Below, in pieces: positions 2,573-8,250 of a stretch of DNA of 12,403 nucleotides (positions are counted from its first letter, which is position 1; each line of letters begins with the position of its first letter). Source of the stretch: Promethearchaeota archaeon (GTDB lineage Archaea; Asgardarchaeota; Hermodarchaeia; Hermodarchaeales; Hermodarchaeaceae). A model generated the notes under the pieces. The model was not told the origin of the DNA, searched no databases, and saw only the letters and a list, made by a program, of their open reading frames with translations. The stretch covers positions 1 through 12,403 of the forward strand of contig JBHLPR010000006.1 in assembly GCA_048939245.1 (NCBI GenBank). Direction: 5' to 3'. The translations under genes were made by a program, and so were the position numbers.

Positions 2573-4597
2573 GTGGGTGTGGTGTTGGAACAAAAATACA
2601 ATAGCCGCTGGTTCAGAAGCTATGAACAGAAACTCATGGCTATCGCATTTCCCATCGCTCTTCTCTTATCGGTATTGCCTCTAATTGTTGGCTTATTTGT
2701 ACCCCAATTTGCCACGGTTTATCTGATAGGTGCCTACCTTGTGGGATTCCTCGCGGTCTTTGGCATTTGTTTAGTTCTTCTTGGGTTTCATAGCAAAATC
2801 GCCAAACGGCTTGCTCTGACAGTGGCTATCAGCTGTTTATTAGGCGCATTAGCTCACTACTGGTTGCTCATTGAAATTTTCTTTTTAGGCTTTCAAATCA
2901 CCTACCCAAATATCTCTGCATACCTTACTGCAGCAGCTAATGTTGTATTCCTTATCGGATTTGCACTGCTATCAATCGAGCAACGAAGGCAATCAAAGCG
3001 ACAAATTGCCGGCTATATTTTGATTACGTTATTTTTTGTTATATGCATTCTTTCAACCTATCAGATGAACCTTACTTACAACCCACCAATATTGCCAGCC
3101 ATCGGGACGGGAGTACGGGTACTCTTAGGTTTTTTCACCGCAATCTTTGCTTGGGCGTTCTACTTCAATCAAGATCCACCACTTGACGTCATTGGGCGGC
3201 CTAGTCGGCTCCTTCTAATGTTCGCCAGCATATTTCTCATTCTTGGCTACACAGTGTTTGCCTTCCAATATGCCCCTGGATGGCCAACAGTTTCAACATT
3301 CTATTATGCTGGGTCCATCTCTGATACTCTCACACTTTTTGCCATCTTTGTTTTTCTTATTGCCATAATGGTTCTTTTTACTGAGACACTTGAAAACATG
3401 GCTACAATTCGCCCTCTTTCAGTGAAATATCAGGTCCCCACTCGGGTTTTGCTTATAATTTCCTTTTTGGTGGGTACGACCCTAACTGTCACTATCTCTA
3501 TTACCCTAATTGGACGTGTCCTTCGAATATATCTTAATCCCATTGATGCACTGGTCGCATTGCAGACCATTGGTGTCGGTCTGCTGATGGGGTTCGGATT
3601 GATAATTCTCATATTTAGTGCCATTGGGTATCTGCTCTCTCGGTGGTTATATCGTCCATTAGAGCAGCTTGAACATGAAGCTATGGCCGTAACCGAACCC
3701 GGTATTATCTCCTATACAGAACCTCCTGGATTGGTATTCACGGAACTCCAAGGCGTTTCCGACAGCTTTACCGAGGTGCTAAACGAATTAGGAAGAGTTC
3801 GAGCTGAGCTGCGTCGGTTCACCATTACTCAACGCCAGCTTCGGGTTCCTTCAACCTCCCAATTAAGCAGGTTGGACTATTATCTAGCAATTCTAAACAA
3901 TACGATAACCAATCGGCTTCAAACCATCATGAATTTCATAGAACTTGGACGGGCAACTTCGAACCAAGAAGAACAGACCCAACTTCTTGATCTAATCCAA
4001 ACTGAAATCAACGAGATTCATTACTTGCTAAAAAGCATTCAACTTCTACGGCTCATCGATACCCAGGCATTACCCGAGTTCCACCGGTTTGATTTGGTTC
4101 CAATGCTGACCAATCTTATCCAAAAACTCCAAGAAGCCATTCCCGATTCCAGAAACCAAATTTCCTTATCTTTCCCTGAAAAAAAGGCCTTGGTGTTTGC
4201 TAATGAATATGTAATGCAGATTTTTCAATCATTATTCCGGTTGGTTTTAGAACGTGATATGGGTGGTCCTGTAACCATTGAAGTCAAGCTATCAACAACT
4301 AAGGAATTAGGTGTTGATTACTGGCAAATCGACATATTCCATTCCAAATGGATACTTTCTGACATTGAAAGGGTTCTCTTATTTCGATCGGACCCCGAAC
4401 AACCACAAAAAGCCAATCCCAATCTCCTTCTGGTTCCAGCTCTGGTTGAATATTTCCGTGGAAAATTCCATGTGAAAAATATCGTGATTGATGACCCACA
4501 ATATGGTACTGTCCTTCAAGTTTTATTACCGCACGCAGACAGTCGCAAACCCCAACCTCAGGAAGAAGAACCAGACTTAGGGAGTGGAGCTGAGTGA
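2573..4597 (+). CDS. Multi-pass membrane sensor with HAMP and degenerate HisKA/HATPase domains (histidine pseudokinase)
   Basis: About 10 hydrophobic segments in aa ~20-357. HAMP: RPLEQLEHEAMAV...TELQGVSDSFTEVLNEL. DHp-like: YYLAILNNTITNRLQTIMNFIEL. The C-terminus LVPALVEYFRGKFHVKN...DDPQYGTVLQVLLP matches the end of archaeal HATPase_c domains. Catalytic boxes are altered. Start codon uncertain. Confidence 0.8.
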   Translation: MGVVLEQKYNSRWFRSYEQKLMAIAFPIALLLSVLPLIVGLFVPQFATVYLIGAYLVGFLAVFGICLVLLGFHSKIAKRLALTVAISCLLGALAHYWLLIEIFFLGFQITYPNISAYLTAAANVVFLIGFALLSIEQRRQSKRQIAGYILITLFFVICILSTYQMNLTYNPPILPAIGTGVRVLLGFFTAIFAWAFYFNQDPPLDVIGRPSRLLLMFASIFLILGYTVFAFQYAPGWPTVSTFYYAGSISDTLTLFAIFVFLIAIMVLFTETLENMATIRPLSVKYQVPTRVLLIISFLVGTTLTVTISITLIGRVLRIYLNPIDALVALQTIGVGLLMGFGLIILIFSAIGYLLSRWLYRPLEQLEHEAMAVTEPGIISYTEPPGLVFTELQGVSDSFTEVLNELGRVRAELRRFTITQRQLRVPSTSQLSRLDYYLAILNNTITNRLQTIMNFIELGRATSNQEEQTQLLDLIQTEINEIHYLLKSIQLLRLIDTQALPEFHRFDLVPMLTNLIQKLQEAIPDSRNQISLSFPEKKALVFANEYVMQIFQSLFRLVLERDMGGPVTIEVKLSTTKELGVDYWQIDIFHSKWILSDIERVLLFRSDPEQPQKANPNLLLVPALVEYFRGKFHVKNIVIDDPQYGTVLQVLLPHADSRKPQPQEEEPDLGSGAE

Positions 4598-4965
4598 CAA
4601 CTGCAGTCATGGTGATTTCTCCACAGAATTCTCTTCGTACTTCTGTCGAACAGTTAATCGAACAAGGACACTATCTTGTATGTCCGGGCGTCGATAATCT
4701 TGGAGGATTTCGCCACGCTTTGAATGCAACGGAAACAACACCAAATGTCATTATTGTGGATTATTGGCTCAGTCGTTCACAAACTATCGATTTCATCCGG
4801 GGTTTGAAAAATCAGGGCTTTGCGGTTATTCTCATGGGAACCAGTTTCTTGGGTAAAGATGTGGCAACGCAGGAAAAGGTAGAATTCATCGAGAAACCAT
4901 TTACACAAAATGAGCTACTCAAAGCGATTACTAGGGTGAATAAGGGAACCACCACTAAACCGTGA
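4594..4965 (+). CDS. Stand-alone atypical response-regulator receiver (REC) protein
   Basis: PNVIIVDYWL (D56), VILMG and FIEKPF (K101) fit the REC fold. The start GTG overlaps the upstream TGA (GTGA), with GGAG just upstream. Confidence 0.85.
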   Translation: MTTAVMVISPQNSLRTSVEQLIEQGHYLVCPGVDNLGGFRHALNATETTPNVIIVDYWLSRSQTIDFIRGLKNQGFAVILMGTSFLGKDVATQEKVEFIEKPFTQNELLKAITRVNKGTTTKP

Positions 4966-5797
4966 TAAGTTTTCGGACACCTGACTCTGAAACGTACAAA
5001 GCTTTACCTGAAATCGGTCCACGATACTCTCGGCAGGAAAAAAGACTCATGATCTTACCGTTAAAAAATTCATGAAATCCTTGTGGAAATACTTCATGCG
5101 ACCGCACAATGAGTTCCAACGAATTTTGAGTCATGAACTCCTCGGTAATATCTTGTCCAAAAGTTCTAATTCGGCTTCCCCGCATCGACGGTCCAAAACC
5201 TTTCAGTGTTTCCCGTGGATCATTCCACAATAATTGAAATGTGACAGGATGTTGGGGTTCGATTTCACGGGGCAGCTTATCAATCTCCTCTACACGACTA
5301 AGACTCTCAGAGATGCCACCATGTACTGCAAAGATTTTTTGTCTTTGACTAATCGCAGCTATCGGCAGATGTGCAAATGTTTCCCAGTACTGTTCAATGA
5401 TATTTCCTAATGCGTTTTGAACCGTGTCATAAAATCCATAAGAGCGATTAATGCTTGGGGTCTCATGGTTTCCGCGGAGAAGCATTACTCGATTGGGTGC
5501 TTGGATTTTCAACGTAAACAGCAAATTCATGTTTTCAATCTGATGAGGACCTCGGTCCACATAATCGCCTAAAAATACAAAGACAGCATGACTATCCCAA
5601 TACCGCATCAAAAGACGTTTTGTTGCATCCCAATCACCATGGGTATCGCCAACGAAAATCAACGGTTTATCCAGTAACTTCAGTAATCGTGGTTCCTGTT
5701 GTAGCAGGGGCAGGACACCTTCTAGAAGCTGCAGAACATCTTCTCTGAGATACTGTTCAACCCTAGCGACTACTTCAGTGATCATGGGGGGCAACAA
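4955..5797 (-). CDS. Ser/Thr protein phosphatase, PPP family (PP1/PP2A-like)
   Basis: GDTHG, GDYVDRG, LRGNHE, VHGG, LLWNDP, FG, RSHE, GF..F and SLFS motifs in canonical order. An alternative start is ATG at 5785. Confidence 0.93.
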   Translation of the reverse strand: MLPPMITEVVARVEQYLREDVLQLLEGVLPLLQQEPRLLKLLDKPLIFVGDTHGDWDATKRLLMRYWDSHAVFVFLGDYVDRGPHQIENMNLLFTLKIQAPNRVMLLRGNHETPSINRSYGFYDTVQNALGNIIEQYWETFAHLPIAAISQRQKIFAVHGGISESLSRVEEIDKLPREIEPQHPVTFQLLWNDPRETLKGFGPSMRGSRIRTFGQDITEEFMTQNSLELIVRSHEVFPQGFHEFFNGKIMSLFSCREYRGPISGKALYVSESGVRKLITV

Positions 5798-5856: not shown

Positions 5857-6795
5857 CTAATCTGCTAAAATCTGAGTTCCCGCTTCACCCCGAATCGCTC
5901 GTGCAATATTTTCAGGTGAAGTGATGATCGCTAGCTCCCCACCCTCCTCAAGAAATTGGATGACTGATTCGATTTTCGGAGCCATGGATCCAGGGGCAAA
6001 GTGGCCTTCTTTGAGATATTGTTTCGCTTCCTTAGCTGTCATCCTATCAATACCCTTTTGGTTTGCCTTTCCAAAGTTCAAATAGACCTTATCAATTGAC
6101 GTTGAGATAAGGAACCCCTTTGCACCCAACGCTTTACAAAGCAGAGCAGATGCCCGGTCCTTATCAATCACCGCTGCTACGCCTTTTAGTTTCTGATTCT
6201 CTTCCACAACCGGGATCCCTCCACCGCCCACTGTAATTACAATGAATCCATCGTTCAGTAAATTGTCAACAGCTTGGGCTTCAATGACTTTTTTCGGAAT
6301 GGGTGAAGGAACCACACGTCGCCATCCACGTCCCGCATCCTCAACGATATGCCAGCCTTCCTTACCCCTTCGGTTAGCAGTCTCCTCATCCATGAAAGAA
6401 CCAATGGGCTTGTTAGGGTGGGTAAAAGCTGAATCATTCTGATCAACCAGGACTTGTGTAACTACGGTAACTGGCAACTTGTTGATTTTCCGGCGACGAA
6501 GCTCAGTTAAAAGGATTTGCTGGAGCATATACCCAATTGCACCTTGTGTATCTGCCCCACAAAAATCAAGAGGTACCTCATGCAATTCACCAGCAGCTAA
6601 CTCAGAGCGTCGTAAAATGAACCCCACTTGGGGACCGTTACCATGCGTGATAGCAACATCCCACCCCTCTTCCACTAGATCTACAATGTGGGGTACTGTT
6701 TGTGCAGCGGCAGCATATTGGTCTGGCACAGTTTTGTGCGCTGCATCTTTGATTAGGGAGTTGCCTCCAATGGCAACAACGATTCGTTTAGCCAT
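5857..6795 (-). CDS. arcC: Carbamate kinase
   Basis: VVAIGGNSL, ITHGNGPQVG, GADTQGAIGY, TQVLVD...KPIG, EDAGRGWRRVVPSP, GGGGIPV, AVIDKD, GHFAPGSMAPK. Confidence 0.96.
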   Translation of the reverse strand: MAKRIVVAIGGNSLIKDAAHKTVPDQYAAAAQTVPHIVDLVEEGWDVAITHGNGPQVGFILRRSELAAGELHEVPLDFCGADTQGAIGYMLQQILLTELRRRKINKLPVTVVTQVLVDQNDSAFTHPNKPIGSFMDEETANRRGKEGWHIVEDAGRGWRRVVPSPIPKKVIEAQAVDNLLNDGFIVITVGGGGIPVVEENQKLKGVAAVIDKDRASALLCKALGAKGFLISTSIDKVYLNFGKANQKGIDRMTAKEAKQYLKEGHFAPGSMAPKIESVIQFLEEGGELAIITSPENIARAIRGEAGTQILAD

Positions 6796-7200: not shown

Positions 7201-7284
7201 ATCTAGCTGGTTGTCAGTTCTTAATCATCCAAGTCTATTTTTGTGAGTAAACACTTATGCTCACTAACAGATTATGGAATACTT

Positions 7285-8250
7285 ATGGTATCTCTTCAGG
7301 ATATTCAAGCCGCTCACAAACGGATACAAAAGGTGGTCATTAACACACCCGTAATGACATCAAATACCGCTAACCGCCTTACCAATTGTCACCTCTTTTT
7401 CAAATGCGAGAATTTCCAACGAGTGGGCGCCTTCAAATTTCGTGGAGCCTATAATGCCCTCTCACAATTATCGTCGAAAGAAAAAGAACACGGTGTGATC
7501 GCCCACTCATCCGGTAACCACGCCCAAGCTGTAGCCCTGGCGGCACAAATGCTAGAAGTCCCTGCGACTATAGTGATGCCTAAGAATTCCTCACCGGTAA
7601 AAATCGCTGCCACTCAGGATTACGGTGCCACCATTGTATTTTGCGAACCTGAACTCAAATCGAGAGAATCTACAACGAATGCGTTAATTGACAAACATAG
7701 GTTTGTCCTGATTCATCCCTACGATGATTCGCGTATCATCGCAGGAGCTGGCACCGCTACCCTCGAACTCCTCAATGAAGTGAAAAACTTAGACGCCATT
7801 TTTGCCCCCGTAGGTGGGGGAGGGTTGATTAGCGGCACCGCTATTGCCACAAAAGGTGTAAGCCCCACCACCAAGGTCTTTGCTGTAGAGCCTGAACAAG
7901 CCGATGATGCCTGCAAATCATTCAAATCCGGTAAACTACTTCCAAGTGCCAATCCTACAACCATTGCAGATGGATTACGTACCTCATTAAGCGAGTTAAC
8001 GTTCTCTATCATCCAAAAACATGTGGATGATATCATCACAGTCTCCGAGGACGAGATTCTTGATGCCATGCGTTTCCTTTGGGAACGAATGAAATTGGTC
8101 ATCGAACCCTCAGGCGCCGTTTCACTAGCGGGGGTCTTCAAGCTGCAAGAACAGATTAACAACCAAAACCTCGGGATTATCCTCAGTGGAGGAAATGTTG
8201 ATCTAACTCGCTTCTTCAATCATTGGCGTACAGATGACACGAAACGCTGA
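7285..8250 (+). CDS. PLP-dependent fold-type II serine racemase / Ser-Thr dehydratase family enzyme (no ACT domain)
   Basis: FKCENFQRVGAFKFRGA (PLP lysine), HSSGNHAQA, PVGGGGL, EPEQADD, TIADG, WERMKLVIEPSGA, ILSGGNVD. ATG 7285 (MVSLQDIQAAHKRI) fits the family N-terminus better than GTG 7243. Confidence 0.9.
   Translation: MVSLQDIQAAHKRIQKVVINTPVMTSNTANRLTNCHLFFKCENFQRVGAFKFRGAYNALSQLSSKEKEHGVIAHSSGNHAQAVALAAQMLEVPATIVMPKNSSPVKIAATQDYGATIVFCEPELKSRESTTNALIDKHRFVLIHPYDDSRIIAGAGTATLELLNEVKNLDAIFAPVGGGGLISGTAIATKGVSPTTKVFAVEPEQADDACKSFKSGKLLPSANPTTIADGLRTSLSELTFSIIQKHVDDIITVSEDEILDAMRFLWERMKLVIEPSGAVSLAGVFKLQEQINNQNLGIILSGGNVDLTRFFNHWRTDDTKR

Follow-up and report, generated by a model that had tools for sequence, protein, structure and literature searches.

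A conserved pseudo-histidine kinase and pseudo-receiver gene pair in Asgard archaea, a candidate for signaling without phosphoryl transfer

Introduction

Pseudo-histidine kinases are kinase-derived proteins that have lost at least one kinase function and yet are conserved (Collins and Childers, as cited in PMC12632262). DivL of Caulobacter crescentus (4q20) senses DivK with its kinase core and works by binding this single-domain response regulator (PMC4211667). For PsmA, a hybrid pseudokinase of Streptomyces venezuelae, no autokinase activity was detected, and the aspartate of its receiver is dispensable (PMC12963549). On the receiver side, the class of pseudo-receivers (PsRs) comprises proteins with a receiver fold in which at least one of the residues DD, D, T and K is missing; the commonest deviation, found in about 80% of PsRs, is the loss of the second residue of the acidic DD pair (DD2; PMC12632262). 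Mg2+ bound via this pair is required for both the phosphorylation and the dephosphorylation of receivers (PMC12632262). Here we describe an overlapping gene pair, ORF A and ORF B (open reading frames; proteins P0001 and P0002), that encodes relatives of a membrane-bound histidine kinase and of a small receiver. The pair lies in a window of 12,403 nucleotides, the whole stretch of DNA analyzed, which is contig C28 (JBHLPR010000006.1) of an 88%-complete Asgard archaeal genome.

Common as pseudo-kinases and pseudo-receivers are, their mechanisms are mostly unexplained. The 2025 review that defines the PsR class is aware of no functional study on an archaeal member (PMC12632262), and Asgard pseudo-kinases have received no more than passing mention (PMC10343646). 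As one joint explanation of the data presented below, we consider it probable that ORF A descends from a real sensor histidine kinase with ten transmembrane (TM) helices, which lost its catalytic motifs and kept the scaffold of membrane domain, HAMP-like part and kinase core, and that the pair would signal by conformation and binding, with no phosphoryl transfer between the two proteins.

The gene pair

Both genes lie on the forward strand of the window:

2573-4597, + strand: pseudo-histidine kinase gene (ORF A, P0001), 674 aa, intact frame
4594-4965, + strand: single-domain pseudo-receiver gene (ORF B, P0002), 123 aa, intact frame

They overlap in the tetranucleotide GTGA, made up of the GTG start of ORF B (4594-4596) and the TGA stop of ORF A (4595-4597). 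Coordinates and shared codons bear out the first-pass annotation of this DNA, which had described two full-length, uninterrupted and overlapping frames. Alternative starts are possible at GTG 2579 for ORF A, whose orthologues open with MVLE..., and at ATG 4609 for ORF B, which would give MVISPQ as in several orthologues. The pseudo-kinase has 24 orthologues at 53-89% identity, and the receiver gene stands directly downstream of it in all 12 loci of the genus.

One genome has its pseudo-kinase orthologue in two pieces, which cover aa 1-593 and 594-658 (L044 6745-8735, G007:C20); frameshift, decay or assembly error are possible causes. In another, an M28 peptidase and the pseudo-kinase occupy one frame of about 1408-1426 aa without an intervening stop (L042 3364-7314, G009:C73), either as a fusion or by chance.

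A histidine kinase core without catalytic motifs

ORF A divides into five parts, delimited largely by its AlphaFold2 (AF2) model:

2621-3607, + strand, aa 17-345: ten-helix membrane domain, family-specific (AF2 helices)
3608-3829, + strand, aa 346-419: HAMP-like helix-loop-helix (AF2 helices to 374 and 387-419, loop 375-386)
3830-3853, + strand, aa 420-427: flexible Ser/Thr-rich linker R-x-P-S-T-S (predicted local distance difference test, pLDDT, below 50 over 416-426)
3854-4060, + strand, aa 428-496: helical hairpin resembling the dimerization and histidine phosphotransfer (DHp) domain (helices 428-461 and 465-496; hhalign to kinase P0029)
4082-4534, + strand, aa 504-654: domain resembling the CA (catalytic, ATP-binding) domain (Bergerat fold), without N, G1 and G2 boxes (alpha/beta sandwich in the AF2 model)

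Homology links the core of ORF A to histidine kinases. A profile built from 20 orthologues, run against 1.84 billion representative proteins, gave 1854 matches with E down to 1e-27; among the matches listed, all but seven full-length family clusters cover only residues ~430-654, which is the DHp and CA core of histidine kinases. Fold searches with residues 425-657 likewise returned histidine-kinase cores only. VIA ranked DivL at Z 19.6 (root-mean-square deviation 2.8 over 221 residues), HK853 at 18.6 and AdeS at 18.5, with isolated CA domains at Z 16-17, and Foldseek gave template-modeling (TM) scores of 0.82 to 4u7n, 0.76 to DivL and 0.69-0.70 to RetS. A phmmer search with the whole ORF A protein found no match among the sequences of the PDB.

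In order to place the motif columns, we compared the ORF A family with P0029, a canonical kinase of the same genome (HATPase_c E 8e-21) whose boxes read AHDISN in the H-box, NLIRNA, DFGRGI and GTGLGL. The hhalign alignment has a probability of 97.8% (E 1e-12) and runs over 225 nearly ungapped columns. The H-box of ORF A reads L441-N442-N443-T444-I445-T446-N447, and N443 (codon AAT, 3899-3901) takes the column of the phospho-acceptor His. In the N-box, QIFQSLFRLVL, S553 and L557 stand on the two Asn columns; in the G1 box, IFHSKWIL, H590 stands on the Asp column; and K613-L618 (KANPNL) aligns with GTGLGL of the G2 box. The replacements of H-, N-, G1 and G2 boxes that the first-pass annotation had read from the letters are thus as it stated, residue by residue and codon by codon. 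Pfam profiles concur, since HATPase_c has no match in ORF A and HisKA reaches 12.9 bits with a cut-off of 26.9. In ORF B, the Response_reg profile (PF00072) reaches 29.2 bits, with a cut-off of 30.2.

The same replacements recur across the 20 orthologues. The His column holds Asn in 20 of 20, the N-box Asn column holds P in 16, S in two, T in one and N in one, and the G1 Asp column holds H in 19 and N in one, while the G1 Gly columns are K/R and V/I and the G2 columns are K/R, N and N/S. As to autophosphorylation on another His, the outcome that the first-pass annotation had named as contrary to its reading, the only invariant cytosolic His is H590 of the former G1 box, and there is none on the DHp-like hairpin, whose first helix is otherwise strongly conserved. 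Being kinase-derived, stripped of its motifs and conserved, ORF A belongs on sequence grounds to the pseudo-histidine kinase class.

A receiver without its metal site

The AF2 model of ORF B (pLDDT 90.2) has the (beta-alpha)5 fold and matches hundreds of receiver structures, among them PhoB (2iyn) at a TM score of 0.81; several orthologues carry a precomputed PF00072 match. Together with the kinase-core matches of ORF A (Z up to 19.6), these predicted models agree with the proposal that both partners kept their folds while losing their chemistry. A HMMER alignment to PhoB sets S9-P10 on E9-D10 and D56 on D53. Across 25 receiver orthologues, the metal-site pair is S/T followed by P/A/S, never acidic and S-P in almost all; D56, K101-P102, F98, M81, G82 and G87 are invariant, and T83 is present in 24 of 25. 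Compared with the canonical receivers of the genome, helix alpha4 is shorter by about six residues. The first-pass annotation had listed a retained D56 and K101, Ser-Pro in place of the acidic pair and Gly at the switch Thr/Ser position. Its first two points hold, whereas the third is ambiguous, as the switch position falls on G82 with HMMER, on T83 in the AF2 model (at the end of beta4) and on G87 when MAFFT aligns the protein with receivers of the genome itself. Among the longer proteins searched, no fused forms of the receiver turned up, which is weak evidence.

With both DD residues gone from a receiver fold, ORF B is predicted to be a stand-alone CheY-like receiver without an Mg2+ site and, by the published definition, a PsR of the commonest kind, with DD2 lost (PMC12632262).

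A pair of this composition might nonetheless retain some phospho-chemistry: Asp56 could be phosphorylated by another kinase or a small donor via a non-canonical metal site, and the pseudo-kinase could serve as phosphatase or scaffold through Asn447. The invariance of D56, K101-P102 and F98, the near-invariance of T83 and the presence of Asn447, at H+4, in 17 of 20 orthologues would suit such a role. Both acidic residues are replaced, however, and DD2 has become a proline, which is unable to ligate the Mg2+ needed for phosphorylation and dephosphorylation alike (PMC12632262); moreover, at H+1, where the E/DxxT/N phosphatase motif has its acidic residue, ORF A and its orthologues have Thr/Ser. 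We regard residual chemistry of this kind as very unlikely.

Distribution and history

A profile of the membrane domain finds the family in 17 of the 19 genomes of one Asgard class, in two genera, and has no match in the other 381 of the 400 Asgard genomes sampled. In the sister genus, the proteins P0027 and P0028 (32-33% identity) carry Tyr or Ser at the His column and keep both the N-box Asn and the G1 Asp. Here the kinase gene converges directly on a phosphatase gene, so that no receiver gene follows it, and the receiver profile has no match in four sister-genus genomes that are 80-83% complete. Metagenomic relatives extend the series. The His column holds N, R and Y in P0058, P0059 and P0060, and P0061, which is 32-33% identical and has the same membrane domain, displays canonical boxes throughout (LLSHEIRNY, NLLRNA, DRGLGI and RGLGL). 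The HATPase_c score runs in parallel, from 56.6 bits in P0061 to 27.6-30.4 bits in the sister genus, with no match in the genus of the window. Scans of metagenome contigs with P0061 and P0208, and of genome contigs with A6 and P0058, gave no match.

In a quick maximum-likelihood tree of the family cores and nine canonical outgroup kinase cores, the family forms one clade (Shimodaira-Hasegawa-like approximate likelihood ratio test, SH-aLRT, 99), with P0061 as the sister of all His-less members (support 90). Such a topology is compatible with a single early loss of the His, which would have been followed by stepwise loss of the ATP site.

Selection on both genes

Nei-Gojobori estimates over 12 genomic orthologues gave dN of 0.25-0.33 with saturated dS (2-3 or not computable). 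Because of this saturation the ratios are rough: omega (dN/dS) is about 0.09-0.15 in the membrane part as well as in the HAMP-like, DHp-like and CA-like ones, and the receiver has 0.14. The highest share of invariant columns of all segments, 48%, falls on the former ATP lid (residues 596-622), which points to a new constrained function rather than to decay. Judging from these patterns, both genes are held under strong purifying selection. The first-pass annotation had implied as much, expecting losses shared by close orthologues and dN/dS below 1. Both expectations agree with the data, given Asn at the His column in every orthologue compared, an acidic pair that is not acidic in any of the receivers, and the low, if rough, ratio in every domain.

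That the two genes are decaying relics without function is consequently an extremely improbable reading. It could appeal to the loss of all catalytic motifs and to the orthologue in two pieces in genome G007, but at least 12 genomes have intact frames, identity is 53-89% while dS is saturated and omega near 0.1, and the replacement residues are themselves invariant.

The sensor half and its linkers

The AF2 model of ORF A (mean pLDDT 78.9) contains ten predicted TM helices, at residues 17-42, 44-69, 75-104, 114-135, 142-169, 173-198, 209-242, 249-276, 287-320 and 323 onward, in keeping with the sensor of about ten TM segments that had been proposed from the sequence. Within this domain, Y233, G247, S248, D251 and R280 are invariant in all 27 family members. 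A search of the ESM Atlas with the membrane domain gave no usable match. A fold resembling that of G-protein-coupled receptors was considered and rejected, as the sole matches, obtained with the domain searched within the whole-chain model, had Z ~12 (residues 43-271) and lie within the noise for helical bundles; no fold is therefore assigned.

The HAMP domain that the first-pass annotation reported can be told only from a motif, RPL...TELQGVSDSF (RPL / TELxxxxxxF), with P362, E391 and L392 invariant, and from the predicted helix-loop-helix at 346-419; Pfam HAMP (PF00672) has no match in ORF A at E values of up to 10. A conserved disordered linker, R-x-P-S-T-S-Q-L (3830-3862, aa 420-430), separates the HAMP-like from the DHp-like part; in it, P426 and S429 are invariant in 20 orthologues. 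Its counterpart in the sister genus reads RRRSPS, and it is a possible site of Ser/Thr phosphorylation.

Proposed mechanism

Gone are the residues that established enzymology requires: the acceptor His, the boxes that bind Mg-ATP (N, G1 and G2) and, for Mg2+, the DD pair. From this we infer conformational signaling and a phosphorylation-independent receptor/adaptor role of the pair. The membrane domain would sense a signal and pass it through the HAMP-like linker, which would alter the conformation of a DHp/CA-like dimer. This conformation would in turn alter the binding or release of the small pseudo-receiver, and this protein could then act as a diffusible adaptor on a putative target. New binding surfaces are probably provided by the former ATP lid, remodeled and highly conserved as it is, and by DHp helix 1.

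Some observations weigh against this reading. The sister genus has a His-less kinase without a receiver of this family, so the kinase-like protein can function alone and the pairing is not obligatory. In HisKA kinases, the H+4 residue, here Asn447, is the position that serves phosphatase activity. Finally, Asp56 and Lys101 persist in the receiver together with F98, the aromatic switch residue, and possibly Thr83, which leaves room for some chemistry at Asp56.

The genome also has four HATPase_c genes of canonical kinase type and three stand-alone receivers, likewise canonical, whose DD is intact; among them, on contig C55, a kinase is followed by a receiver in the same layout as the dead pair. 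The dead pair therefore coexists with a working phosphorelay. These proteins make it conceivable that the pair modulates canonical two-component systems. The pseudo-kinase might bind or heterodimerize with a real kinase, in the manner of RetS with GacS, or might read the state of a real response regulator, in the manner of DivL with DivK~P; the pseudo-receiver might act on real kinases as a competitor or an allosteric ligand. Both RetS and DivL rank high among the structural matches of ORF A, and strong conservation of DHp helix 1 would be in line with such contacts. The core is only 18-26% identical to the real kinases of the genome, however, which makes heterodimers with them unlikely, and the strict pairing in one operon with a dead receiver of its own points instead to a private partner. 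Modulation of canonical systems is in our view unlikely.

Genomic neighborhood

Other annotated genes of the window include the following:

1-540, + strand: C-terminal winged helix-turn-helix (wHTH) part of a 386-aa AAA/STAND-like ATPase
661-1209, + strand: Ras-family GTPase (Pfam Ras E 3e-58)
1246-2454, + strand: helical protein of 402 aa, 36 nt after the GTPase gene, without Pfam or NCBIfam match
4955-5797, - strand: PPP Ser/Thr-type metallophosphoesterase (GDTHGD, GDYVDRG, GNHE), converging on the receiver gene with an 11-nt overlap
5857-6795, - strand: carbamate kinase (TIGR00746, 372 bits)
7243-8250, + strand: threo-3-hydroxyaspartate / threonine ammonia-lyase-like enzyme dependent on pyridoxal phosphate (PLP)

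The gene order of the genus is AAA/wHTH protein, Ras-family GTPase, in some genomes the 402-aa protein and the M28 peptidase, pseudo-kinase and pseudo-receiver, followed by the PPP-type phosphatase and carbamate kinase on the opposite strand and by PLP dehydratase, radical SAM and GNAT genes. Order of the AAA-wHTH, GTPase and 402-aa genes is kept in nine of nine genus loci, except that G006 and G012 lack the 402-aa gene. Only the adjacency of pseudo-kinase, phosphatase and carbamate kinase reaches the sister genus. We rejected the neighborhood as functional evidence: all 12 kb of the region, with its metabolic genes, are collinear across the genus, and adjacency by itself is thus hardly informative on function. 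Carbamate kinase and the PLP enzyme are ordinary metabolic neighbors, collinear like the rest. In four genomes (L016 5085-7151; L017 7692-9752; L042 3364-5112; L044 9604-10713), the M28 peptidase, a protein of about 688 aa with Ig-like domains, separates the 402-aa gene from the pseudo-kinase; it is absent from the window and four other genomes, an insertion/deletion polymorphism of the locus.

The ORF A scaffold might also be controlled by something other than its own sensor, either by Ser/Thr phosphorylation at the R-x-P-S-T-S linker, with the PPP phosphatase as eraser, or by a small GTPase module. The neighbor bears the PPP signature and adjoins the pseudo-kinase or its receiver in both genera, the linker is Ser/Thr-rich, conserved and disordered, and a Ras-family GTPase lies upstream in all nine genus loci with enough sequence. 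Such adjacency carries little weight within a collinear region, however; the phosphatase gene is convergent and not co-transcribed, the GTPase is not the adjoining gene in the sister genus, and no kinase for the linker was identified. We consider this control highly improbable, and we accord the same low standing to the related idea that the pair feeds the neighboring Rab/Ras-like GTPase module (AAA-wHTH protein, GTPase and 402-aa helical protein), possibly tuned by the PPP phosphatase. If true, the latter would amount to Asgard receptor-to-small-GTPase signaling built from recycled two-component parts.

Comparison with known systems

Pseudo-kinases and pseudo-receivers are already known as signalers that act by binding; what is new here is the archaeal form, and we found no description of a conserved two-gene pair with both partners dead. 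The family offers a graded series within one architecture, from the intact P0061, through His-less proteins in which the N-box Asn and the G1 Asp persist and which have no adjoining receiver, to fully degenerate proteins with a dedicated dead receiver. This series makes it testable which surfaces take over once phosphotransfer is lost. Asgard archaeal signaling is, in addition, of interest for the origin of eukaryotes.

Among described proteins, DivL is the best structural match to ORF A and shares with it a DHp and CA fold without the phospho-acceptor His. DivL has Tyr at this site, its CA domain binds ATP and the DivK read by it is canonical and phosphorylated, whereas ORF A has Asn at the site, has lost all ATP motifs, is paired with a partner without a metal site and carries a ten-TM domain. 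RetS of Pseudomonas aeruginosa is likewise atypical as a membrane kinase and signals through protein binding, with the structural similarity given above, but it keeps the His and its catalytic motifs and acts on GacS, and no such partner is indicated for ORF A.

PsmA resembles the archaeal pair in lacking the His and the ATP-binding motifs, in having two phospho-dead halves and in being both lineage-restricted and conserved. It is a cytosolic protein with PAS domains whose receiver is fused via a long disordered linker, and it binds DivIVA; the archaeal pair, in contrast, is by prediction membrane-bound and is encoded by two genes. ORF B, for its part, resembles bacterial PsRs that have lost DD and retained D and K (PMC12632262). 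Most characterized atypical regulators are orphans with output domains, whereas ORF B is an archaeal single-domain protein encoded in an operon with a kinase-like partner.

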